64,000 bases of DNA from the NCBI GenBank assembly GCA_036517295.1, contig DATDWZ010000008.1, forward strand, positions 304 to 64,303, in the 5' to 3' direction. The stretch comes from Minisyncoccota bacterium (GTDB lineage Bacteria > Patescibacteriota > Minisyncoccia > Phycocordibacterales > DATDWN01). The position numbers and the translations under genes were made by a program. The notes beneath the pieces are model-generated. The model worked only from the letters and a program-made list of their open reading frames with translations, was not told the DNA's origin and searched no databases. Shown piece after piece: positions 13,387 to 52,451 of this stretch. Position 1 is the first letter of the stretch. Each line of letters begins with the position of its first letter.

Positions 13387-13485
13387 CCCATTAGAGATAC
13401 CAGTAATTTTGGACTACTTGTATTAAAATTATTTAATAACCTTATTCCCTAAAAAGATTTTCAATAAACTGAAATCTCTAACGGG
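13387..13485 (-). repeat. Copy D of ~100-bp leader/MITE-like element (CCCATTAGAG ... CTCTAACGGG) abutting the ftsI start codon
   Basis: Terminal inverted repeats. The element ends exactly at ATG 13386. It shares the flanking GACTTGTCCCGTTAGAG with copy C. Confidence 0.55.
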
Positions 13486-13509
13486 ACAAGTCGACTCTAA
13501 TTCTAACAA

Positions 13510-13821
13510 TTAGTGGTCGCGGTAAGCAATCTTGGTTGATGGATCTCTGGAGATAAAAGATTTATTGGCCGTATCCCTGAAACCGAGGGAATAGGCAAGT
13601 TGAATATTAACGGTATTTCGCTTTGTTATATACAAAAATTCTTTGTTTCCTATATCGAGAGTCAACCTGGAAGCTTCATGTTCAAGGTTTTGACGAATAA
13701 CGACATTACTTATTGTCATCCTGACAAAATACATATAAAAACCAATAAATAAAAATAAAGTACAGAGTAGCATCCAGAATATGTATTTTTCTCTATTAAG
13801 TTGTAGTACTTTTTCAACCAT
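13510..13821 (-). CDS. Small single-TM cell-division protein, FtsL-like
   Basis: 103 aa with one N-proximal TM. Position between rsmH and ftsI. Confidence 0.5.
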   Translation of the reverse strand: MVEKVLQLNREKYIFWMLLCTLFLFIGFYMYFVRMTISNVVIRQNLEHEASRLTLDIGNKEFLYITKRNTVNIQLAYSLGFRDTANKSFISRDPSTKIAYRDH

Positions 13822-13836
13822 TTTATTGTCTTTTAT

Positions 13837-14730
13837 CTATATTTTCTCGATTATTCTCATCTTTGCGCTCCTCGATCTCGGATTTTCCTCTATTTCCACC
13901 TCGGTAGGAATGATCGGTTTTTTTGTAATCCTTTTCCCCCGACCAACCTCCTCCTGTTCTTTGAAAAATTGCTTGACGAACCTGTCTTCGAGGCTGTGGA
14001 AAGAAATTACGGCCAGCCGGCCTTTTGTATTCAAATGTTCAAAACCTTTCTTTACGCCTTCTTTCAAAGCCTCTATCTCGTCATTGACCGTGATTCGGAG
14101 AGCCTGAAATGTTTTCGTGGCTGGATGGATACGACGGGTGTGATAGAACTTTGGAGTAGCGGATTTTATAATCTCAACCAAATCAAATGTAGTCTCAATC
14201 GGTTTCGATTCCCTCCTCTCCACGATGGCCTTTGAAATTTTCCAAGCGAATCTCTCTTCGCCATAGCCTTTGAGAATAGCCTCTATGTTTTCCCTGTCCC
14301 AAGTATTCACAATCTCTCGTGCGGTCAAGTCGCTCTCGGTCAAATCTTTCTTGAAAGACATGATGAGTGATTCGTCTCTTTGAAAAGAGAATCCCCTGCC
14401 CGAGTCTTCGAACTGATTTGACGAGAGACCAATGTCTAGAAGTATCTTGTCAACTTTCGATAGACCTACGGAAGACAGGACTTTGTCTATGTTCCGGAAA
14501 CTTTCCTGTGCGTACGAAATATTGCACTTGATTCCGAACAGTCTCTGTCTTGTCCTCTCGACAGCTTCGGTATCCAAGTCAATTCCAATTATTTTAACGG
14601 AATCACCAAATCTTTTGACCACTTCCAGGGTATGTCCTCCTCCACCTAAGGTCCCGTCAACAAAAACGTCGCCGGGCTGAATCTCTAAACCATCTATTGC
14701 TTCTTGTAAAAGAACTGTCTTGTGAAGCAT
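13837..14730 (-). CDS. rsmH: 16S rRNA (cytosine1402-N4)-methyltransferase RsmH/MraW
   Basis: MLHKTVLLQEAIDGL...VDGTLGGGGH SAM-binding motif. Follows mraZ. Confidence 0.9.
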   Translation of the reverse strand: MLHKTVLLQEAIDGLEIQPGDVFVDGTLGGGGHTLEVVKRFGDSVKIIGIDLDTEAVERTRQRLFGIKCNISYAQESFRNIDKVLSSVGLSKVDKILLDIGLSSNQFEDSGRGFSFQRDESLIMSFKKDLTESDLTAREIVNTWDRENIEAILKGYGEERFAWKISKAIVERRESKPIETTFDLVEIIKSATPKFYHTRRIHPATKTFQALRITVNDEIEALKEGVKKGFEHLNTKGRLAVISFHSLEDRFVKQFFKEQEEVGRGKRITKKPIIPTEVEIEENPRSRSAKMRIIEKI

Positions 14731-14734
14731 GTTT

Positions 14735-15169
14735 TTAGAGGACTCCTACTTGACCAAGTTTCTCGGCCAAAGTATCCGCTTGCTTCTCCACAACCTTTTT
14801 GTATTCAATCCAGGCCTTCTCGTTCCAAATTTCCACACGACTGGAGACTCCTATCACCACCACCTTATTTTTTAGTCCCGCTCTATCGCGAAGAAACTCT
14901 GGAACGAGAATTCGACCAATCGAATCTATTTCCGCCTCAACCGCACTGGAAAACATTAGGCGATTGAAGCTTCGATTGTCCGCCTGGCCAATAGAAGACT
15001 GATTAAGTTTTTCTTCTATCTTCTTCCACTCCACGTGTTTGAAGATCCAGAGACAACTATCCAACCCTTGGGTCACTACTATTTTTTTCCCAAGTTCGGA
15101 ACGAAATTTCGCGGGAAGAGATAGTCTGTTTTTGTCATCTATTGAGTGTGTATACTCTCCGATTAACAT
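14735..15169 (-). CDS. mraZ: Transcriptional regulator MraZ
   Basis: Duplicated DxxxR-containing halves (SIDDKNRLSLPAKFR / IDSIGRILVPEFLR). Confidence 0.9.
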   Translation of the reverse strand: MLIGEYTHSIDDKNRLSLPAKFRSELGKKIVVTQGLDSCLWIFKHVEWKKIEEKLNQSSIGQADNRSFNRLMFSSAVEAEIDSIGRILVPEFLRDRAGLKNKVVVIGVSSRVEIWNEKAWIEYKKVVEKQADTLAEKLGQVGVL

Positions 15170-15289
15170 AAAAAGTGATGCTTATTTTCTCCTAAACCAA
15201 GACTTCGTCTTGGTCGGACGAACAATTTTTTCAAAATTGTTTTAGTCCCACTTCTTCCCACTTGATTCCTATTATATACCACTCTATCC

Positions 15290-15800: not shown

Positions 15801-15916
15801 ACTGCCCGCTTCCGTTTGAAATTATAGCATAGTATATATTAGGTGTCAAGTATTTTTGGTATCCCAAAAAAGCCCTTATTTTAAGGACTTTTTAGAGTAA
15901 ACTAAAATAATCATGC

Positions 15917-17825: not shown

Positions 17826-17950
17826 AGCATAGACAATTTTCAATTTCTAATTTTAAATTTTCAAACAATTTTCAATGCTTCAATGAATTAAACGGGTTAT
17901 TTTATAAATTAATTCATTAGAAATTGTTTAGAAATTAGAAATTGAAAATT
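17826..17950. repeat. AT-rich palindromic intergenic repeat (core AATTTTCAATTTCTAATTTT; central 10-bp hairpin aatgaattaa/ttaattcatt)
   Basis: Large imperfect palindrome between cfa and lysS. Related motifs occur at 26401-26460, 27080-27140 and 29975-30012. Confidence 0.6.
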
Positions 17951-21325: not shown

Positions 21326-21545
21326 TAACCAAGAAAACGGCGGATGTAGTCAATCCGATGTATGGGAATTGGAAATTTACAGCATATAGGATGTCAAAAA
21401 GGAAGCCGAAAAACAGAACTTCCGGATAGAGTGGTAAATAAATCGTCAAACTGACCAGAATCAGACAAGATATATACCACGGCAATAAAAGTAGAGACAA
21501 AAAAACAACAACGAAAAGTAATATTCTTACTAAAATACCGTTCAT
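21291..21545 (-). CDS. Small polytopic membrane protein, MreD-like (rod-shape)
   Basis: Three hydrophobic helices. Position between mreC and mrdA. The likely start is MNGILVR at 21545; the upstream MINSNG comes from the repeat element. Confidence 0.45.
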   Translation of the reverse strand: MNGILVRILLFVVVFLSLLLLPWYISCLILVSLTIYLPLYPEVLFFGFLFDILYAVNFQFPYIGLTTSAVFLVIVYFTKTQIRR

Positions 21546-21644
21546 CCCGTTAGAGTTTATCATTATATATTCTAGTACATTAGAACTTGCTTAATTCCAT
21601 TAGCATAATCACAACATCTCGGAGCCAAGTTAAACTCTAACGGG
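21546..21644 (-). repeat. Copy A of ~100-bp leader/MITE-like element with 14-bp terminal inverted repeats CCCGTTAGAGTTTA / TAAACTCTAACGGG
   Basis: Perfect 14-bp TIRs. Internal TAGAATATATAATGATAAACTCTAACGGG-ATG. About 85% identical to copy B (52343-52451) in gene-relative orientation. Confidence 0.6.
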
Positions 21645-21676
21645 ATTAATGGAATTACTATATCACAAAGACCATT

Positions 21677-22471
21677 TTATTTGGTTTTTTCTATAAAGAC
21701 AGACTTCGCGGAGAAAACATTGCCCAAACTTCTTATATACACCGTTTTAAAAGAACTTTGAGAATTAGTGTCTATGTAATACACACTACCTATGATAGAC
21801 GAGGCTATTCCCGGATACATAAAAACATCACCCCATAAAATATCAGTTTCCTTCGGAACTTCCAGTTTCATATTAGCCCCTCCCGCACCAGTAATAGTAA
21901 ACGAAGCTCCGGTACGGGATAGGGTCATTTGTTCTGCCACACCGCTACTGGAAAAAAGACGAACCAGAGATGTGTGTGGGGTGATATTGGTAACAATACC
22001 TATAATAGTTACATCCGACAAATAAACTTTATTACCGAGGACAACACCGTCAGAGGAGCCCGCGTCCACAACAAATGTATCGTACGGAGATTGTGGCGGT
22101 TTGGATAATATTCGAGCCATGACCCGACTGGTTGAGATTTTTCTTCCCAATTCCTCTTTCAGTTCCAGATTTTCTTTTAACAAAGCATCATAATCTATTT
22201 CTTTCATCCGTAGGTTGGATAACTCCTCTTTTATAGCAAGATTATCCGTAATCAACCTGCTCTTGAAAACAAAAAAATCTTTTGCATATATGAACGGTTT
22301 GGCCGATGTATTACCTATAATCCAGATAGGCCTGGAAACGGTATAAAAAAAACTTCGGAGATAACCCATAAATAAAAAACCGGAAAAGCTTAGAAGCATG
22401 AACAAGACAATGGTGAAGATCATTTTCCTGTGACCGAAAGACTTTGGTTTACTTCTTAGGAGGTAATTCAT
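21677..22471 (-). CDS. mreC: Rod shape-determining protein MreC
   Basis: N-terminal TM, coiled coil (KENLELKEEL), C-terminal beta domains. Downstream of mreB. Confidence 0.75.
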   Translation of the reverse strand: MNYLLRSKPKSFGHRKMIFTIVLFMLLSFSGFLFMGYLRSFFYTVSRPIWIIGNTSAKPFIYAKDFFVFKSRLITDNLAIKEELSNLRMKEIDYDALLKENLELKEELGRKISTSRVMARILSKPPQSPYDTFVVDAGSSDGVVLGNKVYLSDVTIIGIVTNITPHTSLVRLFSSSGVAEQMTLSRTGASFTITGAGGANMKLEVPKETDILWGDVFMYPGIASSIIGSVYYIDTNSQSSFKTVYIRSLGNVFSAKSVFIEKTK

Positions 22472-23510: not shown

Positions 23511-23554
23511 AAATTAAATCAGAACAAGAAAATCTCATCGAGCACTGTCTTGAT

Positions 23555-23627
23555 GAGAGACTAGTGAGCGCGTCGGCGCGAACTCAAGGAAAATTTTAGC
23601 AAAAATTTATCCGTATCTCTCAGAGAG
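23555..23627. repeat. Copy 1 of ~73-nt structured repeat (closing stem gagagac/gtctctc; internal hairpin cgcg-tcgg-cgcg; conserved AACTCAAGGAAAATTTTAGCAAAAATTTATCCG)
   Basis: Second copy at 58766-58838 in opposite orientation. The internal hairpin there is gctc-gacg-gagc, a compensatory change that keeps the pairing. Confidence 0.5.
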
Positions 23628-23661
23628 ATAGTGTGAGAAAGAGATTTTCTCTATACAAGTC

Positions 23662-24906
23662 TTACAAAATTTTCAAAGCATCCTCAACCGACATCAATTC
23701 CGAATCTGCGGATGTCCTCATCTTCACTTCAACCTTATTCTCAGCAACGGTCTTATCGCTAACCACAAACCGAACCGGAATACCTATAAGGTCAGAATCT
23801 GCGAATTTCTCTCCCGGTCGTATATCCCGGTCATCATAGAGTACAGGAATTCCCCTCTTTCGCAAATCGGCATATAAGTTGTCTGTAAAAGAGACTACTG
23901 CCTCGTTTACACCGAGTCTCACTAGATGGACCACAAACGGAGCAACTTCTTTCGGCCAAACCATACCTTTGTCGTCGGAAAGAAGTTCAACAATTGTACC
24001 CATAAGTCGTCCGAGGCCAATACCATAAGCTCCAAGAACAACGGTACTTTCTTTACCATTTTCTTCTTTAAAATTAAGACCGAGCTCGGTAGTATAACGA
24101 GTACCATATTTGAATATATTTCCAACTTCGATTGATTTCGCCTCTACCAATGTTTCTTTTTTTAATCCTAATCCTTGTAAAATATCATTCTGCATAACCT
24201 CGTCATTTACAGCCAAACTTTTTTCTTTATCTATAAAAATATGATCCTCCCCAGCATCACAAATCGTCTGAAATTCGTGACTGAATTTACTAAACATTCC
24301 TCCTGAGGCAAAAGTTAAATAAGTTTTATCTCCAATCCCCACCCGGTTATATACATTTTTATATGCTCGAATAGCTTTTTCATAGAACGCATCTAACTCC
24401 TTCTGATTTCTATTGAAAGAGTACATGTCTTTCATTAGAAATTCTCTCCCACGCATTATTCCGGACTTTGACCTTAGTTCATTTCTAAATTTTGTCTGGA
24501 ATTGATGTGTATACCTAGGCAAATCACGATATGAACTAATGTGATCCTTCATCATTCTTACCATTGGTTCTTCGTGAGTACAGCCAAGCCCAAGCTCCGT
24601 ATCATTTTTTAATTTTGTCTTAAACCATACATCAACTTTTTCGTCGCTCCATCTATCGGTTGCTTTCCATATCTCTGGATCCTGAAGTGTTGAGAGAGAT
24701 ACTTCTTCACTACCAATCGCTTCCATTTCCTCTCTAATGATTTTTCTAAGGTTATTGATTACCCTTAAACCTAGAGGTAAGTAATCATAAACTCCAGCCA
24801 TTTCTTTGTGTATAAATCCAGCTTTAATAAGAAGCTGGGCGTTCTTTGAAACCTCATCGGACGGAGCTTCTTTACGGGTTTTTGTAAAAAGTTGTGATTG
24901 TTTCAT
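23662..24906 (-). CDS. proS: Proline--tRNA ligase (short form lacking editing insertion)
   Basis: Class II motifs. KNAQLLIKAGFIHKEMAGVYDYLPLGLRV N-terminus. The likely start is MKQSQLF at 24906. Confidence 0.85.
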   Translation of the reverse strand: MKQSQLFTKTRKEAPSDEVSKNAQLLIKAGFIHKEMAGVYDYLPLGLRVINNLRKIIREEMEAIGSEEVSLSTLQDPEIWKATDRWSDEKVDVWFKTKLKNDTELGLGCTHEEPMVRMMKDHISSYRDLPRYTHQFQTKFRNELRSKSGIMRGREFLMKDMYSFNRNQKELDAFYEKAIRAYKNVYNRVGIGDKTYLTFASGGMFSKFSHEFQTICDAGEDHIFIDKEKSLAVNDEVMQNDILQGLGLKKETLVEAKSIEVGNIFKYGTRYTTELGLNFKEENGKESTVVLGAYGIGLGRLMGTIVELLSDDKGMVWPKEVAPFVVHLVRLGVNEAVVSFTDNLYADLRKRGIPVLYDDRDIRPGEKFADSDLIGIPVRFVVSDKTVAENKVEVKMRTSADSELMSVEDALKIL

Positions 24907-25003
24907 CCCGTTAGAGTTTATGTTTATATATTCTAGCAAATAAAATAAATTTATCTGAATACTGTGACAACGGTGTCTCCGAAACGAGTAAGACTCTAAC
25001 GGG
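24907..25003 (-). repeat. Copy C of ~100-bp leader/MITE-like element (CCCGTTAGAGTTTA ... GACTCTAACGGG) abutting the proS start codon
   Basis: TIRs. Internal TAGAATATATAA. Ends exactly at ATG 24906. Confidence 0.55.
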
Positions 25004-25032
25004 ACAAGTCACTACATATTATAGCAAAAAAG

Positions 25033-25086
25033 AGAGAGGGTCAAAAAAACTCCTGGGCCGTAGGGCGCCAAGCTTTTGGCTTGGCT
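25033..25086 (-). terminator. Strong hairpin (ccgtaggagccaagc-caaaa-gcttggcgccctacgg) + U7 on minus strand; A7 on plus (bidirectional-capable)
   Basis: Long GC stem followed by TTTTTTT on the minus strand, 200 nt downstream of the rseP stop. Confidence 0.5.
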
Positions 25087-26386: not shown

Positions 26387-26400
26387 TAGAAATTTTTAAT

Positions 26401-26460
26401 TCTTAATTTTGTAATTTTTAAATAATTTCTAATGAATTAATTTTTAAACATTTGAAATTA
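26401..26460. repeat. AT-rich intergenic repeat containing TTAATTTTGTAATTTTTAAATAATTTCTAATGAATTAAT (identical 39-mer at 27093-27131)
   Basis: 39-nt identity with the repeat upstream of frr. Shares the AATTTCTAATGAATTAA core with 17918 (reverse complement). Confidence 0.6.
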
Positions 26461-27079: not shown

Positions 27080-27140
27080 AATTTTCAATTTTTAATTTTG
27101 TAATTTTTAAATAATTTCTAATGAATTAATGTCTAAAAAA
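27080..27140. repeat. AT-rich intergenic repeat (second copy of the 39-mer)
   Basis: See 26401-26460. Confidence 0.6.
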
Positions 27141-27854
27141 TTAAATGTTTAGTAATAAATTTTCCAAGATTATTTTCACCGGCGCACCGCGATCGTATAG
27201 AGAGGCCCGAGCTTCCTGACAAAGTTCTAGGACTTTAGATGATTTCTCGACGCCCAATCCATACAATTCCGATTCAACTTGATTAAGAAAGGCGATAGCA
27301 TCTTGTTTTGTCTTCTCTTCGTCACTTATGGCTTCCGTTATTTCTTTTACTCTAGCCAAACGCTCGACTAGCTTTAGTTCCAAAATACTTTCTAACTTTA
27401 TAGACTTTTGACTTTCGCCTCCTATCACCAACATTCTAGATCGTAATGTTGGTAATAACATATCCTGCGGAGAAATTATGAAAAAATGCGTCCCAACTGT
27501 CGGTTCCTCAAATACTTTGAGTAGCGAGTTCTGTGCTTCTTGTGTAATAAAATCTGCTTGAATTATAAAAATCCTCTTACTTGGAAGCCGAGCTTCCAAG
27601 TAGGTTTCGAATGGCTTACGATTGGCACTTTCCATAATGGCACGAGCGTCGTCAATGGTCAGCGTTTTAAACTCTCCGTGCCAAAAATCCGGATTGCCGG
27701 CCGTTTTAACTCCAACCGTGTTTTCCAAAAAGTCTTTAAGTTTTTCGACCAACCCCTTTGCTTTATTCTCAACAAAAAAATAGGCGTGGTGGAGATGCTC
27801 TGAGTTTTTATATAAATCAATAAGCGACTGCATGAGTTCAGTATAACAAAACAT
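27141..27854 (-). CDS. holB: DNA polymerase III delta-prime subunit-like (clamp-loader AAA+ without functional P-loop)
   Basis: IFIIQADFITQEAQNSLLKVFEEP (sensor and Walker-B-like region). No GKT P-loop. Size about 230 aa. Confidence 0.65.
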   Translation of the reverse strand: MFCYTELMQSLIDLYKNSEHLHHAYFFVENKAKGLVEKLKDFLENTVGVKTAGNPDFWHGEFKTLTIDDARAIMESANRKPFETYLEARLPSKRIFIIQADFITQEAQNSLLKVFEEPTVGTHFFIISPQDMLLPTLRSRMLVIGGESQKSIKLESILELKLVERLARVKEITEAISDEEKTKQDAIAFLNQVESELYGLGVEKSSKVLELCQEARASLYDRGAPVKIILENLLLNI

Positions 27855-29974: not shown

Positions 29975-30012
29975 AATTTTCAATTTCTAATTTTCAATTT
30001 TCAAAGATTTGA
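29975..30012. repeat. AT-rich intergenic repeat AATTTTCAATTTCTAATTTTCAATTTTCAAA
   Basis: Same core as 17837-17870. Confidence 0.55.
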
Positions 30013-30079
30013 CAGTGAGCGTAAAATTGACATAATAGCCTTAGATTGCGGGATAGAAACCCCATACGAGGAGAAGTCC

Positions 30080-34478: not shown

Positions 34479-34597
34479 ATACATACTATTATACACTGTC
34501 AAAAAAGGCCGACAAGGAATTGCATTACTTCATATTTTTGCTATTATCTCTAAGTGCATAAAAAATGCATATGTTAATTTGAAAACGGTTAGTAAGC

Positions 34598-34915
34598 TCC
34601 GGTGTAGCTCAGTGGTAGAGCAATCGCCTGTACCGAAAGGTTGTGCAGCTTCCTAAAGTAATTTAGGATGAAAAATGAGGTGAATTCGGGGAACCCCACA
34701 GTTTAATAGCTGAGGGCAATCCCGAGCCAAGTCCCGAGAGAAATCGAGGGAAAGGTGTAGAGACTATCTCGTAAGAGAGTAGCCGTCACGCAAGTGAGTA
34801 GGCGAAGCGCCCCACATCCCACTCAGAAATGAAGGATGATGATATAGTCCAGACCAAAGGCAACTTTGGATAAAATGTAAGCGATTGGTCGTAGGTTCGA
34901 TCCCTACCGCCGGAG
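34598..34915 (+). tRNA. tRNA-Asn(GUU) interrupted by a group I intron in the anticodon loop (exons 34598-34631 and 34878-34915; CCA not encoded)
   Basis: Acceptor tccggtg/cgccgga (U1-A72, G73 as in Asn). D-arm gctc-agtggta-gagc. Anticodon stem atcgc/gcgat with loop CUGU|UAA after splicing. T-arm gtagg-ttcgatc-cctac. 5' exon ends in U; intron ends in G. Confidence 0.7.
34632..34877 (+). ncRNA. Group I intron (IC3-like, tRNA anticodon-loop type), ~246 nt
   Basis: Conserved core strings AAUCCCGAGCCAAGUCCCGAGAG (cf. AAUCCUGAGCCAAGCCGAAG), AAGGUGUAGAGACUA (P7; cf. GGUGUAGAGACUA) and UCGGGGAACCCC. Ends with omega-G. Confidence 0.7.
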
Positions 34916-36562
34916 CAATGGTCGTGAAAGAGGTATAATTTGCCTCTGTCGTGGCTTTACCAGGGACTTTTTTGAGGTTCGAAAATGATTTCGAGGCTCC
35001 GGAAGTTCCACAAATGGTTGAGAACTCGTTTTTAACAAGGAACCGCCAGCCGTAAGGGTTTTGGTGGTTTTTTGTGCTTGTTCGAAAGTTTTCTCTTGAT
35101 CTAGTCGTTGCTGTACTCTTTCCGCAAGTTTCTGAACTGGAGTTTTCATTGTCGGAGTTACTTCTTTATCTGTAAGTATTAAGTTCGAAAAGATATGACT
35201 CAAAAGTAATCTTCTGTCTTCGGGAGACCTTTTCTCGTATATCTCTCTTGCTCTCCTAGCAAGGTCAATTATATTCAACCAGATTTCAAAATACTTTGCT
35301 TCTTCAGTCTTAATCCTACCAAGTTGTTCTATCACAGCATTTTGCTCTTCTATTATTTCCTTATTTTTTATCTCCCAACGCTCTCTTGTAATTCTCTCAT
35401 CAAGACGGTCATCATATACGTTATCTAAACGTCTCTGTAGTGAGCTGTAGCGGTCGTTAAGCCCCTTGATAGCACTTTCCTTGTACTCTATCTCTTGGGC
35501 GTGGTTTTCCTTAATTTTAACCTTAATTTGCTCTGCCTCTTCTGGTGTTATGGTTTCAAAGAACTTAAAGACTCCAAAGAGTTTGTCTTCGAGTTCCTTT
35601 TCCGGTGCATACTTTTTCTGAGAGCAGTTTCGGTAATGATTGCAGTGATAATAGACTATTCCTTTCTGTATTTCTGCCGTAATAGTCCCACTACATTCTC
35701 CACAGATAAACATTTTTCTAAATTGAAACTCGTGGCGGTTAAAGTGAGGAGTCTTTTTACCCATTCTAATATCTCTAACCTTTTCAAATAACTCTTTGGT
35801 GATAAGGGGTTCGTGAGACCCATTACTAAAAACCTCATCATTCCATTCCATCGCTCCATAGTAAAAAGGATTATTAAGAATACTCTCAATAACACTTTTT
35901 ACCATCTTCTTACCAGATCGAGTCCGAAATCCCTCTTTGTAAAACATCTCAATCACGGCTTTCATAGAATAGTTACCAGAACCATAAAGTTCAAACATCC
36001 TTTTTACGAATGGAGCGATTTCTTGATCTATTATGTGTGTTTTATGTCCCTTCTCACCAATGGTTTTATATCCGAGTGGAGGTTTTGTTGGTAACCACCC
36101 TTGAGCAAGTTTTTCTTTCTGACCCTTTTTTACCTCTTCAGATAGATTTGAAATAAACTTCTTAGCTAGAACTATTTCAATATCCCAGCGAAACTTTTCG
36201 TCAGATTTAGCGTTCTTATGGATAATCAGATTTTGCTTAACAAAATGTATTTGCCTAGAAACATCTCCCTCAACCCAATCGTTAATCGCTAGTGCTTCCT
36301 TGAAGTTGCGAGTAAGTCTATCTACTTTCTCACAGAGTAATATATTTACTTTATTTTTTTCCAAAAACTCTAACATTTCTGCAAAAACCACTCGTTGTTT
36401 TGCACCACTTGCTGACTCTGCAATCGAAAAGACTTTTATCATCTGAAAATCTTTTCGCTGAGCATATTCCTCCATAAGTTTAACCTGTGATGGCAAAGAA
36501 TAACCTGTTTCTTCTTGTTCTTTTGATGAAACTCTACAATAACTAACTGCTTTTATTTTCAT
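34904..36562 (-). CDS. Large serine recombinase (resolvase catalytic domain + recombinase domain + zinc ribbon + coiled coil)
   Basis: YCRVSSKEQ catalytic Ser motif. Recombinase domain. CGECSG...YYHC zinc ribbon. Long coiled coil. The 3' end overlaps the tRNA-Asn 3' end. Confidence 0.85.
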   Translation of the reverse strand: MKIKAVSYCRVSSKEQEETGYSLPSQVKLMEEYAQRKDFQMIKVFSIAESASGAKQRVVFAEMLEFLEKNKVNILLCEKVDRLTRNFKEALAINDWVEGDVSRQIHFVKQNLIIHKNAKSDEKFRWDIEIVLAKKFISNLSEEVKKGQKEKLAQGWLPTKPPLGYKTIGEKGHKTHIIDQEIAPFVKRMFELYGSGNYSMKAVIEMFYKEGFRTRSGKKMVKSVIESILNNPFYYGAMEWNDEVFSNGSHEPLITKELFEKVRDIRMGKKTPHFNRHEFQFRKMFICGECSGTITAEIQKGIVYYHCNHYRNCSQKKYAPEKELEDKLFGVFKFFETITPEEAEQIKVKIKENHAQEIEYKESAIKGLNDRYSSLQRRLDNVYDDRLDERITRERWEIKNKEIIEEQNAVIEQLGRIKTEEAKYFEIWLNIIDLARRAREIYEKRSPEDRRLLLSHIFSNLILTDKEVTPTMKTPVQKLAERVQQRLDQEKTFEQAQKTTKTLTAGGSLLKTSSQPFVELPEPRNHFRTSKKSLVKPRQRQIIPLSRPLLRR

Positions 36563-36600
36563 ATATATATTTATATTATCACTTTTTAATAATCAGCTAC

Positions 36601-36770
36601 AGTCCGACTTCTACCTTCTGATACTATCAACAGGTAGTGGACTCTTATGTATCAGATAACTATGAGCGAGTTTTGTGATAACCTTTTCGTAAATTATTTT
36701 ACGTTTTATATATCCAACCCCGTTCTGAACTATTCCGATACTCTTCAGATGGCAGGGCGAGAAGTCGGAC
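36601..36770. repeat. Long-range inverted repeat agtccgacttct ... agaagtcggac(a) flanking ~150 nt immediately upstream of the recombinase gene (candidate att/recombination site or structured RNA)
   Basis: 11/12-bp inverted repeat at 36601-36612 and 36760-36770. Confidence 0.3.
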
Positions 36771-36818
36771 ACTCGTTTTCCCTGCTTTCGCAAGAGTACC
36801 TGAACACCCCTTATAGGA

Positions 36819-37091
36819 CTAAACGTCCTGTTTTAAAGAACAAGTTTTACCTGATGTCCTTATAGCAGGTTTGTTATCTAAATTGTCTTCCGTTTGCGAC
36901 ACGGGCTCTCTGGGGTTGGTCAAAGAGCTTGTGTCGATAACCGAATATTCGTTTTTCTTATCTTCGTAATCAAACCTTGATAACAAATCAAAGAAAGACG
37001 CCAACCCATTTATTTCTTCTCCGCTCAAAATTGAACTAACAGATTTTTCTGTATCAACTTCATTATTAAAGTTTTGAGATTTCACTGTCAT
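36819..37091 (-). CDS. Hypothetical acidic protein (90 aa)
   Basis: ORF only. Lies between the recombinase and the RM genes. Confidence 0.3.
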   Translation of the reverse strand: MTVKSQNFNNEVDTEKSVSSILSGEEINGLASFFDLLSRFDYEDKKNEYSVIDTSSLTNPREPVSQTEDNLDNKPAIRTSGKTCSLKQDV

Positions 37092-37099
37092 TTCAATTT

Positions 37100-37140
37100 T
37101 TGATAAACAAAAACACCACCCTTTTAGGTGGTTAATTTAC
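37100..37140 (-). terminator. Intrinsic terminator downstream of res (accacc-cttttag-ggtggt + U-tract on minus strand)
   Basis: Hairpin plus TTTTTGTTT on the minus strand. Confidence 0.5.
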
Positions 37141-37287
37141 GTACAGCAAAAGAGCCCCTTGATTGGGTAACTGTATCGGATTATTTAGTAGAGCGAAGTT
37201 TCCATCGGAAACTCACAGTAGCTTGATAACTTAATTATACCCTTTCACAACAGAATAGCAATCACATCTTATCCACTTATTCTATAC

Positions 37288-39699
37288 CTAGAACAAGTCC
37301 TCAAACGGTCTCCATTCCTTACTGTCATTTACTGACTGTCTTTCCCTAAAGGAATACTTCGGACTATCGTTGTAATACCAAAGTCCTGCTTCTTGTACCG
37401 CAATACCACCTACAAACTTTTTACCAAATTGCTTGAGCTTAGCTTGCAATGATTTTGCCTTATCAGCGGTATCTGTACTTGTTGCGGTATCTCCTTTCTT
37501 CGTATCAAAAATACCTATACGACCATCAGAGAAGCGAATAATCCAGTCAGGATAAAACAGGTTTTCTTCTTTTGTTGATGAGTTTGTATATTTAATGCCT
37601 AGATAGTTTTTTCCTTGATCGCCGTTTTTGAACCACCAATCAATCTTCCCTTTTTTCTTTTCCAAGTACTCGACAAAAGCAATTTCATTTTTGCGTCCAT
37701 TATAATCTTCTAATAAGTAGAACTTGTCTAATACACATAACTTTTGAGGGACAACCTTATAATCTTCAGGATACCGATATTCTTCTTGTATAGTAAAAGT
37801 ATATGCTTGCTGTTCTTCTATCTTCTTTTTCTTGTCAGTGAGTAAACTATCTGAAATTGGTTTGTAAGCTCTAAGTGCCTTTGTTATTGCCGGACGAAAC
37901 TTACTTTCAGTACCTTTACGAATATCTTTAATAAATATCTTGTACCAAAAAATATGGTCATCAAGTAAAACTGTCTTAAACCAAACACGAAGTGCTTGTT
38001 TTAACACTGACCAAGAACGAGCTATGTTAGAGTATCTAGCTTTGTCGTCTTCTTGTTCTTTCAAGATTTGGTAACAAAGATAGTTGAATGTTTTTTCAAC
38101 ATCACTCACTGACATTTCAAGAGAAACATCACTACCTTTCTTTTTGAAATCAAAAGCAAGGTTATCGTAGTCCTCAAAACGAGCATTGGCTATAACTTCA
38201 TTTACTAAAGTATTACTAAGATCCAGCCCTGCCTTTTTTAATTTTATCTCTGATTTACCTAAAATATCTTTCTCACTAATACCAAAATGCTTGTTTAATT
38301 CTATTCTAAAAACTTTTTGGAACTCTGAAGATACACGAATATCTCCGTAATCTAAGCGAGAAATATAATCAGAAGGCAACTCTATATTACTTATTCCTTT
38401 TTTTATATGTGCAGTTTCTGTAAGAGCTTTATTCGCAGGGTTTTGATCTGGTATTACTACTTCCTTACGCTTATAGTTTGTATATAGATAACCCAATCGG
38501 AGGTTAGGATTATTTTTGTAATCTTCTTTTGCTTGAGGTTCAGGCATTCGCAAAATACGCCCAACAGTTTGAGTATAAAAAGTATTTGATTGTATCTCTC
38601 TAAACATCACAAGTACCGATGCACGAGGACAGTCCCAACCATTACCAGCAGTTTGTTTGAAGATCAGAAAATCGTGTTCATCGTCATTTTCTTCTAGCCC
38701 CTTCGGTTTATCTTGTCCCTTAGACCATTTTGCAATTTTATGTTCAGGTACTTTCATTCTAACAAGATAATCTGTAACAATTTTTTCCTTTGTCTGTTCG
38801 CCTTTTTCTATTAACTTACTGTCGTCATTCGGTATTTGTATTAACATTAAAGGATTTATTTCTTTCCCGAGTGCCTTAAGTTCAGCTTTTAATTCTTCTC
38901 TTTTATTTATTCCATTTTCAAGAAGAACTCTATCAAGGTCTTTACCGGACATACCCTTAAAATCTTCATCTGTTTGAGTAACAATAGCTTCTTTTATTAA
39001 ACCTTGATCAACCACTTCTTTTCTTGGGACTTCATAATAACTACCAAGACGGCGAGCATCCAGTTCGTCATCTCGGTTTGGTGTAGCTGTAATGTGAAGA
39101 ATTACCTTAGGATCAATCATCTCGATAATATCCTTTGCGAGCCTCGTGTCTTTGTTTTTATGGGCTTCATCAATAACTAAAATAATCTGCCTGCCATCAG
39201 CGTGTGTTTGCTCAATTACATCCTCAAAGTATTTACCCGTTTCTTTTATCCACTCTTCATCTTCAGGACGGCGAAGTAATCTTGTTTCTGCACTTTTAGC
39301 AGTAACTTTTTGCCAATTCAAAAACAAAATATCATTTTGATATAGTTTGCCTTGATTTATATCTGCAACAGTCAAAGCTCTGTTTTCAAGCATATTTTCA
39401 AAATACTCAAGAAACTTACCTTTACTTTGCATAGCCAAATCATCACTGAAAGTAATCCAAATAAATGCCTTGTCTTCTTTCCATTGTGGTAAATGATTAA
39501 GGCCACGAATAAAGAGTGAGGTCATAAAGGTTTTACCGCTACCAGTTGGCGATTTGAAAACAATAGGTAATTGTCTGCCTTGTTGTTTCCATATCGCTAC
39601 AAACATATCTGTAAGATTTTCTACAGCAGTTTTTTGGAATTGTAATGGATTAAATGTTTTCATATTAAATAATATTGTATATTTGCTTGTATACCTCAA
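37288..39699 (-). CDS. res: Type III restriction enzyme Res subunit (SF2 helicase + C-terminal PD-(D/E)xK endonuclease)
   Basis: KSPTGSGKTF (motif I), LVIDEAHKN (DEAH), ITATPN (motif III). C-terminal PDWIIRF...IGIFDTKKG nuclease motif. Confidence 0.85.
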   Translation of the reverse strand: MRYTSKYTILFNMKTFNPLQFQKTAVENLTDMFVAIWKQQGRQLPIVFKSPTGSGKTFMTSLFIRGLNHLPQWKEDKAFIWITFSDDLAMQSKGKFLEYFENMLENRALTVADINQGKLYQNDILFLNWQKVTAKSAETRLLRRPEDEEWIKETGKYFEDVIEQTHADGRQIILVIDEAHKNKDTRLAKDIIEMIDPKVILHITATPNRDDELDARRLGSYYEVPRKEVVDQGLIKEAIVTQTDEDFKGMSGKDLDRVLLENGINKREELKAELKALGKEINPLMLIQIPNDDSKLIEKGEQTKEKIVTDYLVRMKVPEHKIAKWSKGQDKPKGLEENDDEHDFLIFKQTAGNGWDCPRASVLVMFREIQSNTFYTQTVGRILRMPEPQAKEDYKNNPNLRLGYLYTNYKRKEVVIPDQNPANKALTETAHIKKGISNIELPSDYISRLDYGDIRVSSEFQKVFRIELNKHFGISEKDILGKSEIKLKKAGLDLSNTLVNEVIANARFEDYDNLAFDFKKKGSDVSLEMSVSDVEKTFNYLCYQILKEQEDDKARYSNIARSWSVLKQALRVWFKTVLLDDHIFWYKIFIKDIRKGTESKFRPAITKALRAYKPISDSLLTDKKKKIEEQQAYTFTIQEEYRYPEDYKVVPQKLCVLDKFYLLEDYNGRKNEIAFVEYLEKKKGKIDWWFKNGDQGKNYLGIKYTNSSTKEENLFYPDWIIRFSDGRIGIFDTKKGDTATSTDTADKAKSLQAKLKQFGKKFVGGIAVQEAGLWYYNDSPKYSFRERQSVNDSKEWRPFEDLF

Positions 39700-41350
39700 G
39701 GATTGGTTGCGGTATTGTTTTGAGATTTATTTTTTTGTTATCTTCAAAATCAGCAATTTCAACTCTTTCTTCCCAACTAAACATATAAACTGTTACTGGT
39801 TTTTTAAGTGATAGGACTTCTTTTATAAACTCATCAAGTTTGTTTTGTTCTTCTCTGAAATATACTGCTGTCATTCTATCTTTGTTTTCAAACACTTGCC
39901 AATAATCATTTTTCTTTACTTGCTCTAGCGTATTTTCTGCGATTGCGAGCATTTCACCTGCGTGATGAGCTAGTAGTATTTTGTCTTTATCATCTGCATC
40001 AAGAATGTTGTGCTTACCAACAAAAGCAGTTTTGTAAAACTTAACTGATTGAAACAACCCACCTTTATCATTATATCCAGTAATGGCTGTTTTAATTCTT
40101 GGTAAACAAATATCGCTCATTATGTTATTTTCGTTGTCGGTAACTAAGATAAATTGCCTTGAACCTTTTGTGTCTTCATCTTTATTTAATTGCATAACAG
40201 CGTGTCCTGTTGTTCCTGAACCAGCAAAGAAATCTAAAACAATTATATTATTATCAAAATGGTTTAGTAATTCTCTTATTAGTTTAGTAGGTTTTACTGT
40301 GTCAAAACCGTGTTCTTTACCAAGAATTAAAGATAACTCTTTTTTACCGTCTTCAGCTGTATCAACTTGTTCTTTAAGCAGAAGCGACCAAAAAGGTCTT
40401 TCAATGGATTGATTTTCGTCTTCAGGATAGATAATTTTTTTTACTTTCCCTTCCACTATAATTATTTTATCTTCTTCAATTAAGCGATTAACTTCCTGAA
40501 GTCCAATTTTCCATCTTTTACCCGTTTGTGGAATAACACCTAAGATTGGAAACTTCATAGTATCTCTTTTCTTTCTTCCTATATCTGAGTCCTCAATATC
40601 AACAAGACGAGCTAGTCCTTTTTTAGTTTGAAAATTATATTTTCTTTGACCTTGTTCTTTTAGGACAAAACCTAGATATTTTTCTTTTGGTATCGCATTA
40701 CTATAACAAAGAATGTATTCTATGTTTTGCTGTATTTGATATTTTGCCTTACCAGAATTAACTGGTTTGGTTTTATTCTGCCAATTAAGGATACCCAGCA
40801 ATGAAGTTTCGCCAAAAATACTATCAGTAAGAAGTTTTAATTGTGCAAACTCGTTATCGTCAATACTTATGAAAATAACACCGTCTTTCGTTAGAAGGTC
40901 TTTGGATAACTCTAACCTCTTTCGCATAAAAGAAAGCCAGTAGCTATGACGAAAAGGGTGGTCTTTTGGCACATCTGTTCCATCAGGATATTTATCTAAA
41001 ATCCTTTTATCTTTATAACGAAAACCGTCTTCTCCTGTGTTGTACGGCGGGTCAATATAAATAACATCAATCTTGCTCTTATGTGTGTAATTTAAGCAAG
41101 TAAGTGCGTGGTAATTATCACCCTCAATAAGTAGGTGGGTGGGTTCGGTATCTTTACTTTTAATTCCTTTTGTGGGTACATCTTCAAGAATTGGTAGTTT
41201 ATTTTCTACATCATCTTCAAAACCTTCAGGCACATCAAGCCACACTAAACCATAGTGTTGTGTTTTTACAGCTTTTTTCCATTTCTCAATTTCTTTTTCA
41301 AGCTTGAGAATGTGATTTTCTTTTTGTTGTAGTAATTCTTTTTCAGTCAT
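39665..41350 (-). CDS. mod: Type III restriction-modification Mod subunit (N6-adenine DNA methyltransferase, beta class)
   Basis: YIDPPYNTG (motif IV) lies upstream of FFAGSGTTGHAV (motif I). Overlaps the res start. Confidence 0.85.
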   Translation of the reverse strand: MTEKELLQQKENHILKLEKEIEKWKKAVKTQHYGLVWLDVPEGFEDDVENKLPILEDVPTKGIKSKDTEPTHLLIEGDNYHALTCLNYTHKSKIDVIYIDPPYNTGEDGFRYKDKRILDKYPDGTDVPKDHPFRHSYWLSFMRKRLELSKDLLTKDGVIFISIDDNEFAQLKLLTDSIFGETSLLGILNWQNKTKPVNSGKAKYQIQQNIEYILCYSNAIPKEKYLGFVLKEQGQRKYNFQTKKGLARLVDIEDSDIGRKKRDTMKFPILGVIPQTGKRWKIGLQEVNRLIEEDKIIIVEGKVKKIIYPEDENQSIERPFWSLLLKEQVDTAEDGKKELSLILGKEHGFDTVKPTKLIRELLNHFDNNIIVLDFFAGSGTTGHAVMQLNKDEDTKGSRQFILVTDNENNIMSDICLPRIKTAITGYNDKGGLFQSVKFYKTAFVGKHNILDADDKDKILLAHHAGEMLAIAENTLEQVKKNDYWQVFENKDRMTAVYFREEQNKLDEFIKEVLSLKKPVTVYMFSWEERVEIADFEDNKKINLKTIPQPILEVYKQIYNII

Positions 41351-42005: not shown

Positions 42006-42296
42006 AGTTATAATTATACTTTACTATTCTTTACAAGCCAAACTCACGAAGTGGACAACCTTATGAACACAACATAATAAAAATAGTATTGGCAGATCAA
42101 TAACCTATGATATAATTCACCCACAACTGAATAAGCAGACCTAACCCTATAGTTTTTATTATAGGTATGGTTGCAGGTCGTATAAGGCACAAAGAACCCA
42201 TCGCAGGGTCGCCTTATACGCCTTATCGGGAAACCGGTATGAGGGACTTCGGTCTCTACCTGTGGTGGGCTTTTTGTATATAAAAATAGTAAAATT

Positions 42297-48290: not shown

Positions 48291-48300
48291 TATAAAACAC

Positions 48301-49486: not shown

Positions 49487-49489
49487 ACT

Positions 49490-50002: not shown

Positions 50003-50010
50003 TTGCTCCT

Positions 50011-50748
50011 ATGTACCGAAATCTATTTAAAAAAATAAAGAAAGAACAACTAAGTCCGAAAGAAAAAGCGGATGGGTTTTTGAAACTCCGAGAGTTTATA
50101 AAAGAAAATCCAATACGATTTACTCCGGAAATGACCGTGGCAGAGAAAAAAGGCGCACCCATAAAATCTCCTTTCTTTAATGGCTTCTTTTTTGGGCAGA
50201 GAACTTTCGTTTTGGCCGGGGCTTGTATGCTTCTACTCGTTGCTGGAGGAACGGCTATCGGCTCAAACTCTTCGTTACCCGGAGAAATTCTTTACCCCGT
50301 GAAAATATTGAACGAAAAAATGGAATCATTCTTGTCTGTGGGAACAAGGGCCCAGACCGAAGTTGAAATTCAGCATACCTTAAAAAGGCTGGATGAAGCT
50401 GAAAATCTATCAAATCAGAACAGACTCGACGAGAAAAAACAGATAGAAATTACCGATAATGTCTCATTAGGACTCCAGGAGATATCAAAAAAGGTCACAA
50501 AATTGCAGGATGACGGCAAGACAAAAGATGTCGAGGAGATAAATACCAGATTTAAAAAATCTCTGGAGGTACGCCGAGGAATAATACTAAAACTTGAAGA
50601 AGGGTGGAATGAAAAACAAAAATCTGCCTCTAGCACGAAAGAAGATGGGGAAAATTCATCGAATAAGGACTCGTCAAAAAACAGGGAGCAAATCAGAGAA
50701 TCGGGAGGCGTATTGAATGTAAAAACGGAAAATCCTCTTGAATTATAA
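50011..50748 (+). CDS. Putative anti-sigma factor (single TM, cognate to the ECF sigma)
   Basis: Immediately downstream of the sigma gene. Cytoplasmic N-region, TM (VLAGACMLLLVAGGTAIG), extracytoplasmic coiled region. Confidence 0.45.
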   Translation: MYRNLFKKIKKEQLSPKEKADGFLKLREFIKENPIRFTPEMTVAEKKGAPIKSPFFNGFFFGQRTFVLAGACMLLLVAGGTAIGSNSSLPGEILYPVKILNEKMESFLSVGTRAQTEVEIQHTLKRLDEAENLSNQNRLDEKKQIEITDNVSLGLQEISKKVTKLQDDGKTKDVEEINTRFKKSLEVRRGIILKLEEGWNEKQKSASSTKEDGENSSNKDSSKNREQIRESGGVLNVKTENPLEL

Positions 50749-50754
50749 GAACCC

Positions 50755-51114
50755 TTACTTATCCTGAGATTCCAGTTTAACCGCCGCTTCAGGAGTTGAA
50801 ACAGTTCTACCCATAAGAAAGAGTCTGATTATACCAACCGCCACAATCCAGTAAACGAGCATGGCCAAAAGTGTAGTCCACTCAAACACACTCCCTTCTA
50901 TTTGGGTTCTGCTAAACACCGCGTTAAATGGAGAGGTAAAAACGGATGTGGCGCCATAAATAAAGCTTGTAAATCCGGCGCCAGCATTGGCACCGAGAAG
51001 TTTCAAGACGAATCGAAAGGCTAAGAGTATTTCCAGTAACCCCAACACATACCAAACTATTTGCGTGCCACGGTATAGAGGTTTTGTTGATGAAGAATTA
51101 TATGATGATTCCAT
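50755..51114 (-). CDS. YggT-family membrane protein
   Basis: About 100-aa two-TM protein. LLEILLAFRFVLKLLGAN matches the YggT pattern. Confidence 0.65.
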   Translation of the reverse strand: MESSYNSSSTKPLYRGTQIVWYVLGLLEILLAFRFVLKLLGANAGAGFTSFIYGATSVFTSPFNAVFSRTQIEGSVFEWTTLLAMLVYWIVAVGIIRLFLMGRTVSTPEAAVKLESQDK

Positions 51115-51139
51115 AAATTTTTGTTGTTAGAATTAATAT

Positions 51140-52243
51140 TTAGTTTTTTGTCTTAAACGCCTGCCTTTCCCCTCGTACCGTACCCATACTGTTTTCGGCA
51201 ACAAGTCGGAAATAGTAGTTAGTGCCCGAATTAAGCCCCGTAACAAATTTATCAATAGGCACAACCGCTCCCCCGGCACCCACATTAACAGGATCGGATG
51301 ATTGCAATAGTACCTGCCCTAGTAATGAATTCGTGCTGTACTCAAACCAATACTTCGTATCAGCAAGATTCGGATTAACCGTACCGTGCAAGGTTGCTCC
51401 CGAAGAGGTTACCGCCGAAGCGTTACCCGTAGTGACACTCGGAACTTTTGCCGATACCGGCCCCAATGTCTTGAAATTTAATATTGAACCGTTAATCGTC
51501 CCGAATTGGTTTTGAGCATTGATCCGAAAATAATATGTCGTCAGGGGTTCAAGGGAAGAAAGGGATACGGAAGCTGATGATTTCGTATTACCGTCACCAA
51601 TAGAAGAGAAAGCTGAGGTATCCCCCAATTCCACGGTCTTACCATATTCAAACCAATATTGTGTTGATGCATTATTTGGCGTAACTTCACCATTTATAAT
51701 AGCCGTTGTTCTGGATATGGCGCTGGCTGGCAGGGTTTTTGTCCTTGGAGCACTCCCCACCGGAGTTGATACACCTTCCGTGGTCTCTAATGTATATTGC
51801 CCACCAACCACTCTTCCATAGCGGTTTTCCGCGACAAGTCGAAAGTAATATGTTGTGTTTTTAACAAGTCCTGTAATATATGCCGGGGCTTGGATTGAGA
51901 CGAAACCGGAACCAAGCGTCTGATTTAAAGTCTTACTTCCAAGGTTATTGGTATTACCATATTCATACCAATAACTTGTAAACGCCCCCCGTGGGTTGAC
52001 CGTACCATTAACAACTGCTGTTGTATCCGTTGGAGAAAATGATGAGTTAGTGACGACAATTGGCAACCCGGCTTGAGATGTCACGACCGTGTTCGTACCG
52101 GTAGTATTAGTATCGTTATTTACGGTAGTAGATGTAGTTGTGGCATTAGGAGACGGACCAACACCTCCACTAAAGCTCCAGATAGCCCACCCAACTATTG
52201 CCACCACCACGATGCCTCCAACAATCATTATTGTTTTTTCCAT
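51140..52243 (-). CDS. N-terminally anchored protein with three fibronectin type III-like repeats
   Basis: Three repeats ending NTTYYFRLVAENRYG, TTYYFRINAQNQFG, TNYYFRLVAENSMG. Confidence 0.65.
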   Translation of the reverse strand: MEKTIMIVGGIVVVAIVGWAIWSFSGGVGPSPNATTTSTTVNNDTNTTGTNTVVTSQAGLPIVVTNSSFSPTDTTAVVNGTVNPRGAFTSYWYEYGNTNNLGSKTLNQTLGSGFVSIQAPAYITGLVKNTTYYFRLVAENRYGRVVGGQYTLETTEGVSTPVGSAPRTKTLPASAISRTTAIINGEVTPNNASTQYWFEYGKTVELGDTSAFSSIGDGNTKSSASVSLSSLEPLTTYYFRINAQNQFGTINGSILNFKTLGPVSAKVPSVTTGNASAVTSSGATLHGTVNPNLADTKYWFEYSTNSLLGQVLLQSSDPVNVGAGGAVVPIDKFVTGLNSGTNYYFRLVAENSMGTVRGERQAFKTKN

Positions 52244-52342
52244 AATATTTATGTTATTTTTTAATTATGTATAATCCTACACACTAAGACGAGACGGAAA
52301 CCGCTGTATTACAGGTGTATAATTATAATTTTGTTATAATGG

Positions 52343-52451
52343 AGTAATGAATCCCGTTAGAGTTTAACTGGGCTCGGAGATGTTGTAATCATACTAATGA
52401 GGTTAAATAGGCTTTAATGTACTAAAATATATAATGATAAACTCTAACGAG
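52343..52451 (+). repeat. Copy B of ~100-bp leader/MITE-like element (CCCGTTAGAGTTTA ... TAAACTCTAACGAG) abutting the ytxJ-like ATG
   Basis: About 85% identical to copy A over the full length in the same gene-relative orientation. Ends exactly at ATG 52452. Confidence 0.6.

Follow-up and report, generated by a model that had tools for sequence, protein, structure and literature searches.

Miniature inverted-repeat transposable elements (MITEs) of bacteria are exemplified by Correia/NEMIS of Neisseria, Chunjie of Geobacter uraniireducens and Nezha of the cyanobacteria. The element described here was found in a Minisyncoccota bacterium (assembly GCA_036517295.1, contig DATDWZ010000008.1), within a stretch of 64,000 nucleotides (positions 304 to 64,303 of the forward strand; hereafter the window): four elements of 97-99 bp, here designated copies A to D, are bounded by CCCGTTAGAG and CTCTAACGGG and each end right at an ATG. 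It resembles the known bacterial MITEs in its size (approximately 100 bp), the absence of coding sequence, terminal inverted repeats folding into a long hairpin, a short duplication, many intergenic copies that also occur inside unbroken operons, and possible promoter-like sequence at the ends; it differs from them in the sequence of the inverted repeats, in a 4-bp duplication of the form TNNA (TA in Correia), in the presence of the same ends in at least ten phyla (one genus in the known cases) and in the position of about one quarter of its copies exactly on a start codon, which is rebuilt by the terminal purine of the element. The four repeats are likely to be copies of a MITE, a non-autonomous DNA transposon whose family is very widely distributed and has not been described before; literature searches for the arm sequences, for MITEs in the candidate phyla radiation (CPR) or Omnitrophota and for MITEs associated with leaderless genes retrieved no description of the element.

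The anatomy was analyzed over 131 copies. The element measured 80-110 bp, thus remaining below the approximately 300 bp customary for MITEs, and had no coding capacity, the sole reading frames being upstream open reading frames (uORFs) of 6-36 codons that were created by the insertion itself. Its ends are inverted repeats of the form Y-CCCGTTAGAG / CTCTAACGGG-R: the bases adjoining the 10-mers paired as Y/R in 116 of the 131 copies (C-G 75, T-A 41), and the perfect Watson-Crick stem from the 10-mer inwards had a modal length of 12 bp (range 10-18), usually extending at least 2 bp beyond the 10-mer. Positions -5 to -2 and +1 to +4 formed an exact 4-nt direct repeat in 83 copies; the inner dinucleotides were identical in 90 copies when compared directly and in 10 when compared as inverted repeats, with approximately 8 expected by chance. 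The flanking hexamers showed a mean direct identity of 4.09, whereas 200 shuffles of the pairings gave 2.66 (maximum 2.94). The duplicated 4-mers are of fixed length and variable in sequence with the form TNNA (TTCA/TGAA 28, TAAA/TTTA 26, TTGA/TCAA 11); among the window copies, the duplication is exact at D, matches at three of four positions at B and is lacking at A and C. Inverted ends combined with a short, variable direct repeat of fixed length are the signature of cut-and-paste transposition, and elements of this kind that are too small to encode anything are MITEs. In the mechanism proposed here, the mobile unit would comprise approximately 80-110 bp with 11-13-bp terminal inverted repeats, Y-CCCGTTAGAG(NN)...(NN)CTCTAACGGG-R.

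Concerning the transposase family, IS1380-family insertion sequences and eukaryotic piggyBac transposons have ends of the form CC(C)...(G)GG and a duplication of 4 bp (piggyBac, TTAA) or of 4-5 AT-rich bp (IS1380 family). The CCC ends and the 4-bp T..A duplication of the element presumably resemble this pattern, which we take as a lead and not as a classification: the ends found here, (Y)CCCG...CGGG(R) with a 4-bp duplication, agree with this family definition. Unlike in piggyBac, the target is TNNA, and TTAA accounts for a single one of the 83 exact duplications. IS1380 transposases have been used as the prokaryotic outgroup of piggyBac (PMC10813416). With integron attC sites the element shares imperfect inverted repeats of approximately 60-140 bp and GTTAGxx / xxCTAAC-like cores located by gene starts, whereas the order of the cores is reversed (GTTAGAG...CTCTAAC versus RYYYAAC...GTTRRRY); attC identity was rejected because of these reversed cores, the lack of an integrase or cassette array, the housekeeping neighbours and the variable 4-bp duplication.

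A pattern scan of 185,579 species-representative genomes (596 Gb) with CCCGTTAGAG-N60-90-CTCTAAYGRG retrieved at least 120 loci, most of them matching on both strands. Among the matches listed were CPR/Patescibacteria (Saccharibacteria most often), Omnitrophota, Elusimicrobia, Planctomycetota and Nitrospirota as well as Desulfobacterota and several deltaproteobacterial groups, WOR-3, Stahlbacteria and Bdellovibrionales; the arms were found in at least ten phyla, which contradicts a preliminary description of the window that had called the repeat genome-specific. The matches were judged not to be due to chance on the grounds of both-strand matching, several copies per locus and shared features outside the search pattern. 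Copy density reached four in the 64 kb of the window and up to 4-5 per 8 kb elsewhere; near-identical copies occurred at different loci of one metagenome-assembled genome (MAG; L042/L051), and one subfamily was present at different genes in different genomes (L071/L089). Viral contigs yielded two weak matches, one of them probably due to chance. Locus L095 contains two identical copies (1730-1811 and 3388-3469) at a distance of 1658 bp, the flanks of which are identical as well on either side; this looks like a tandem duplication of an element-containing segment.

The window derives from a population of the Rifle-aquifer type. Its relatives were sampled by a metagenome scan with ProS that comprised 80 loci of 58-86% identity (636 kb in all). 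The element was upstream of proS in none of the 80 relatives, nor was it present in the syntenic region of the approximately 40 that keep the order proS-mreB-mreC-PBP2. The only copy in the whole 636 kb, at locus L144, is flanked by TTGA/TTGA; in the relative L140, TTGA occurs once, as part of a TTGACA box, although the divergence of the upstream flank precludes proof. Multiple dispersed copies are, hence, accompanied by presence and absence between relatives. At copy D, a clean empty site was not obtained, as the best closer BrxC relative of the downstream gene product was only 55% identical (nearest named relative: a Minisyncoccia (CPR) MAG, 49% identity); in all listed public contigs with an identical BrxC and the gene 5' of brxC, the spacing between both genes is the same 208 nt, which implies a filled site in those contigs and no insertion polymorphism. 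The MITE-like mobility suggested by the preliminary description is consequently supported by the inverted repeats, the TNNA duplication, the near-identical copies at different loci and in different genomes and the empty proS site.

The position of the element at start codons is a by-product of insertion geometry and of selection that favours harmless sites where the genome is compact and leaderless. If the 3' flank started with ATG, a frame-0 ORF of at least 80 codons followed in 27 of 34 copies (frames 1 and 2: none); if it started with GTG, such an ORF followed in 7 of 25. The junction is not confined to ATG, a point raised in the preliminary description: 34 of the 131 copies abut an ORF start, while other element ends lie on stop codons. 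At 14 ends the duplicated TNN terminates an upstream ORF of at least 100 codons, and six further ends coincide with an ORF stop at a TAG inside the arm. Among the 34 start-associated copies, 27 carried a second copy of the start in the 5' flank (ATGNNY, usually ATGAAT), with the resulting geometry ...A[TGAA]-Y CCCG...CGGG R-[TGAA]N..., in which the terminal R and the duplicated TG constitute a new start codon. Indeed, at three loci (L015, L018, L101) the 5' side reads ATGAAC and the 3' side GTGAA; the new start codon, therefore, begins with the terminal R of the element. In the same proportion of copies (27/34), the retained old start opens a uORF (MNPVR(D/V/E)...), the stop of which is always located inside the element; the offsets between old and new start are distributed over the three frames as 10/9/8. 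That the element is translated in frame and extends the N-terminus is ruled out by these uniform offsets and by every uORF stopping inside. In this respect the element also differs from the Rickettsia palindromic elements, which sit in frame within ORFs and are translated; both are short palindromic mobile repeats that are kept where genes stay intact, in reduced genomes.

The proposed insertion would proceed by a 4-nt staggered cut at TNNA, by which the four bases become duplicated. With the TGAA of an A|TGAA gene as target, the terminal purine and the downstream TGAA would rebuild ATG or GTG and with it the whole ORF, leaving the protein unchanged; as the downstream TGAA is preceded by the purine of the element, the latter would reach precisely to the ATG. 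Upstream, the previous start codon would persist and open the short MNPVR... uORF, which terminates within the element. In compact leaderless genomes, TNNA at start and stop codons would be among the few sites that spare coding sequence, so that copies would accumulate there. The preliminary description had proposed an mRNA hairpin or an operator pair as the role of the repeat; neither is supported as the cause of the ATG junction, for which the insertion geometry accounts instead.

According to the first of these two proposals, the element is a cis-regulatory mRNA leader, the arms of which pair in the 5' untranslated region, hide or expose the start region and thereby control translation. A long terminal stem is predicted for each copy (A: -32 kcal/mol, z -3.8; B: -33.2, z -4.3; C: -30.2, z -4.0; D: -23, z -1.9), the 5' flank UUGU of copies A and C can extend the stem over AUGA via G.U pairs, and -10-like boxes just 5' of every copy would place the hairpin at the 5' end of the transcript. 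In contrast, the stem mismatches of 34 gene-oriented copies comprised nine G.U versus eleven A.C and, thus, no sense-strand bias; the family also occurs on stop codons and between convergent genes; the abutted genes are unrelated housekeeping genes; the absence from proS and from the syntenic mreC-PBP2 sites in the 80 relatives argues against an ancestral regulator; and the direct-repeat flanks would have no role in such a model. Rfam 15, applied at the gathering and E-value thresholds, recognized only a group I intron and a LOOT RNA in the window and nothing at the element copies (best hit of copy B at the E-value threshold: a plant miRNA model, E 0.82), and only tRNAs at 17 other loci. One subfamily conserved across phyla contains two internal hairpins with compensatory changes; it is oriented with the genes at some loci and antisense at others. 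Taken together, the leader model appears improbable, and the regulatory hairpin of the preliminary description is disfavored by the unbiased mismatches, by the two orientations of this subfamily and by the copies placed exactly on stop codons. Members of the hairpin subfamily were located, among others, at L077 (6312-6419), L099 (3771-3878), L042 (2860-2967), L030 (4328-4436), L109 (2090-2197), L036 (1895-2002) and L107 (4386-4490), in MAGs of Nitrospirota, deltaproteobacteria, WOR-3 and Omnitrophota; most of them carry a third, internal arm copy.

The second proposal, arms serving as operator half-sites that bracket a promoter, could refer to the conserved, inverted 10-bp sequence around -10-like boxes in copies B, C and D. 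The half-sites would, however, be approximately 80 bp apart with a variable interior, the arms recur in at least ten phyla, where they adjoin unrelated genes or stop codons and have target-site duplications, and no regulator gene co-occurs; this explanation is extremely improbable.

A different RNA-level function would be that of a processing stem that spreads by transposition: an RNase III-like cut at the stem base would free the interior, e.g. a tRNA, and regenerate a leaderless mRNA. Two tRNA-Thr genes of Saccharibacteria (L013, 4972-5059; L090, 2732-2820; anticodons CGU and UGU) have CCCGTTAGA and TCTAACGGG as their immediate flanks, which lengthen the acceptor stem by 9 bp and lack a target-site duplication; furthermore, the targets are mostly genes of the leaderless type without Shine-Dalgarno (SD) motif, and in every start-associated copy the initial base of the start codon either is the last base of the stem or directly follows it. 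On the other hand, the stem is without strand bias, the element is found in either orientation and also at stop codons, both tRNA cases concern related genes from a single lineage, and RNase III normally cuts inside a stem and not at its base. We regard this scenario as decidedly improbable; the bracketing of the tRNA-Thr genes could reflect the origin of the element's ends, a cargo, or an RNA-level role.

The high abundance of a hairpin element of approximately 100 bp in intergenic regions, often in several copies per 8 kb, would also be expected of repetitive extragenic palindromic (REP) sequences or their paired form (REPIN), which are spread by the REP-associated tyrosine transposase (RAYT; IS200/IS605-like) and not by a DDE transposase; the third internal arm of some copies forms a local palindrome, and a DDE transposase was not found nearby. 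REP/REPIN sequences, however, lack a target-site duplication, whereas an exact, variable 4-nt repeat was present in 83 of 131 copies here; they are species-specific, whereas the present arms are common to several phyla; the conserved 5' tetranucleotide of GTAG type is absent, and no protein family, RAYT-like or other, recurs among the neighbouring ORFs. Membership in the REP/REPIN class was rejected on the basis of the duplication and the missing shared neighbour family, and such an origin is very improbable.

Several observations weigh against the interpretation as a MITE. A one-strand pattern of the size used in the scan would by our own estimate be expected approximately 130 times by chance in 596 Gb, some retrieved loci (L207, L076 etc.) are probably chance matches or artefacts, and the invariance of the 10-mer is partly made by the search, as all sequences were fetched by the exact 10-mer. 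The exact duplication is absent in 48 of the 131 copies and, in the window, perfect at copy D only, with none at A and C; the 5' flank of the latter two, AGT(C)GACTTGT, is unaccounted for, and a variant of it recurs beside approximately 15 copies elsewhere. An autonomous partner or a transposase with these ends was seen neither in the approximately 1.5 Mb of fetched loci nor in the window, the scans bridging at most 600 bp and MAGs usually losing insertion sequence copies. Clustering of 743 neighbouring ORFs revealed no enriched family, arm pairs 130-5000 bp apart with matching duplications proved to be merely neighbouring copies, and the 20 scanned ORFs of the window included a serine recombinase and no DDE transposase. 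Finally, a plain MITE leaves unexplained the compensatory changes in the hairpin subfamily, the two tRNA-Thr genes exactly between arms, and the translation of essential genes without SD motif behind a hairpin of -23 to -33 kcal/mol. Consistent with housekeeping neighbours, Pfam assigned the largest neighbour clusters to penicillin-binding proteins (PBPs), IF-2, EF-G, class II aminoacyl-tRNA synthetases and a glycosyltransferase; between distant arm pairs (L105, L066, L059, L010), no single ORF of the size of a transposase gene fills the interval.

The window copies are listed in Table 1. In gene orientation they follow the layout T-CCCGTTAGAG ... approximately 78 nt ... CTCTAACGGG-ATGAA; all eight sites in the window that match CTCTAACGGG with at most one mismatch are the eight arms of the four elements, and a relaxed search of the window detected no fifth copy. 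The four copies of approximately 100 bp with terminal inverted repeats at the ATG of four genes had been recognized in the preliminary description, the positions of which are correct for A, B and C; for D it began at 52343, the extra 10 nt belonging to the flank including the duplicated ATGAAT. It was also right in regarding the MINSNG-type N-terminal extensions of mechanically called ORFs as artefacts and in noting an internal -10-like box approximately 20 nt before the ATG (CTA(G/A)AATATATAA, common to B, C and D). The pair with 85% identity is, in contrast, B/D and not A/B (B/C and C/D 70-71%; A versus the others 60-64%); a uniform orientation relative to the gene applies to B, C and D, whereas that of A is undefined, as it scores equally when flipped; and, of the terminal sequences given there, that of A reads ...TATCTCTAATGGG and not ...AAACTCTAACGGG.

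Table 1. Positions of the element copies and of associated sequence features in the window
Feature	Position	Strand	Context
Copy A	13387..13485	-	between ftsL (stop 13510-13512) and ftsI (ATG 13384-13386)
Arms of copy A	CCCGTTAGAG 13476-13485; CTCTAATGGG 13387-13396		both read as reverse complement
Extended -10-like box TGTTAGAAT	13500..13508	-	5' of copy A; 14 nt before 5' arm, geometry as at copy C
Copy B	21546..21644	-	between mreC (stop 21677-21679) and small mreD-like ORF (ATG 21543-21545)
Equivalent of TGATAAACT in copy B	21554-21562	-	
-10-like hexamer TATAGT	21657..21662	-	6 nt 5' of degenerate old start ATTAAT of copy B (21645-21650)
Copy C	24907..25003	-	immediately 5' of proS (ATG 24904-24906)
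TAAACT in copy C	24915-24920	-	without the TG
Promoter-like TTGACC-N15-TATAAT	25018..25044	-	5' of copy C; consensus match
Extended -10-like box TGTTATAAT	52332..52340	+	6 nt 5' of old ATG of copy D
uORF of copy D	52347..52367	+	ATG AAT CCC GTT AGA GTT TAA (MNPVRV*)
Target-site duplication of copy D, 5' unit TGAA	52348..52351	+	within retained old start ATGAAT 52347-52352
Copy D	52353..52451	+	5' of ytxJ/brxC-like gene (ATG 52452-52454); 3' arm CTCTAACGAG
Extended -10-like box TGATAAACT in copy D	52435..52443	+	hexamer TAAACT 8 nt before working ATG
Target-site duplication of copy D, 3' unit TGAA	52453..52456	+	A52452, paired with T52352, completes working ATG

Copy D represents the cleanest insertion of the four (TGTTATAAT-GGAGTA-ATGAAT / element / ATGAAC), its uORF opening at the old start codon and terminating inside the 5' arm. 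At copy B the old start upstream is degraded to ATT (TATAGT-AATTCC-ATTAAT / element / ATGAAC), the flanks ATTAAT and ATGAAC giving a duplication of TTAA versus TGAA with three of four positions matching. Copies A and C lack a target-site duplication; the 5' flank of A is AGTCGACTTGT, and AGTGACTTGT is the 5' flank common to A and C, which may stem from recombination between copies or from some subfamilies having a longer end. A flank of the form (G)ACTYGY was observed beside one arm in approximately 15 copies, mostly without exact 4-nt repeat, including A (13486-13496), C (25004-25013) and copies at L017, L019, L066, L064, L008, L034, L049, L013, L039, L098 and L124; at L019 the inverted repeat continues approximately 15 nt further out. 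Pfam identified the neighbours as an ftsI-type PBP (copy A), mreC followed by a small hydrophobic ORF and PBP2 (copy B), a class II ProS 3' of an RseP-like protease gene (copy C) and a BrxC/YtxJ monothiol protein (copy D). The working start is the ATG after the element: public gene calls for ftsI and brxC begin there, and the proS relatives begin with the same ATGAAACAATCACAA, marking the ATG after copy C as the true start.

Regarding the expression of these genes, 40 gene starts of the window (8-60 kb) showed a peak of TAnnnT 8 nt before the ATG (10/40; at 6-8 nt, 17/40), and SD-like motifs were rare. A -10 box close to the ATG without SD motif is the published signature of leaderless genes (PMC3160421); judged from its sequence, the genome looks largely leaderless. 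The proS genes of the 80 relatives likewise have a -10-like hexamer at a distance of 6-9 nt from the ATG and no SD motif. Among the retained old starts, TAnnnT was found at 6-9 nt in 12 of 29 and a well-spaced SD motif in only one; according to this promoter spacing, the element typically landed on the +1 ATGAA of leaderless genes. The TGTTATAAT box is the presumed original leaderless promoter of the copy D gene. At copy C the -10 hexamer (25018-25023) lies 14 nt before the 5' arm, so that a transcript would begin approximately 7-8 nt before the hairpin; the consensus scan paired TTGACC with TAATAT at a 17-nt spacer. Inside the element, a leaderless promoter could arise anew in B, C and D from TGATAAACT or TAAACT, the 8-nt spacing of TAAACT being the commonest -10-to-ATG spacing in this genome. 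This element-borne -10 is common to the three copies by descent; as a family-wide feature it was rejected, as TAnnnT at the right spacing occurred in one of 30 start-associated copies outside the window, a background rate also found at other element ends. At the four copies, generic scans for sigma-70 promoters and for terminators did not exceed shuffled expectation, and an intrinsic terminator was discarded, no terminator-like site being present at any of them and ATGAA following the stem. Most likely, B, C and D are expressed from the element-borne -10 (TAAACT, 8 nt before the ATG) and/or by read-through from the retained upstream promoter, and A by read-through within the dcw operon.

Beyond mere tolerance, the element might be a mobile 5' module adapted to leaderless genes that lands on the +1 ATGAA, rebuilds the start and restores expression. 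We consider this unlikely, although three routes can be envisaged from the sequence: the outward -10 at the 3' end (TGATAAACT in B and D, TAAACT without TG in C) could serve as promoter, cleavage at the conserved stem base could yield a leaderless mRNA, or ribosomes could re-initiate across the hairpin after the 5' uORF. If true, the conserved duplex around the Saccharibacteria tRNA-Thr genes would suggest a common RNA-processing activity.

Further features were observed in the window. A/T-rich intergenic repeats (AATTTTCAATTTCTAATTTT...) occur at 17835-17877, 26392-26456, 27080-27145 and 29975-30017 and also at L128 (9700-9725); at least one is located just 5' of a -10 box, at the -35/UP position, and these repeats may represent promoter modules that the window has in common with a relative. 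A second dispersed intergenic repeat of approximately 140 nt is present at 23511-23661 (+) and 58724-58880 (-), with 85% identity and no Rfam match; each copy is co-oriented with the local genes, and one lies between proS and mreB. A tRNA gene at 34590-34900 is split by a group I intron (Rfam RF00028, 34630-34870), the exon halves being visible; ARAGORN reported no tRNA in the window. Its direct neighbours are the gene of a large serine recombinase, at 34904-36562, and two type III restriction-modification genes, res at 37288-39699 and the methylase gene at 39665-41350; the region 34904-41350 is probably an island integrated at this tRNA. The LOOT RNA (RF03000, 72.9 bits) is located at 42138-42257, 5' of a gene for a trypsin-like peptidase.

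In consequence of the insertion geometry, the occurrence of one repeat at the ATG of unrelated essential genes is accounted for without a dedicated regulator, and the start-codon pattern recurs in dozens of genomes. For annotation it is of relevance that the element makes false N-terminal extensions and short uORFs and parts leaderless promoters from their start codons; at the same time, it raises the question of how essential genes without SD motif are translated behind a strong hairpin. An undescribed MITE family with identical ends across CPR/Patescibacteria, Omnitrophota and other phyla would imply a widely transferred transposase, and the element would be useful for tracing the exchange of DNA between uncultivated bacteria of groundwater and sediment.

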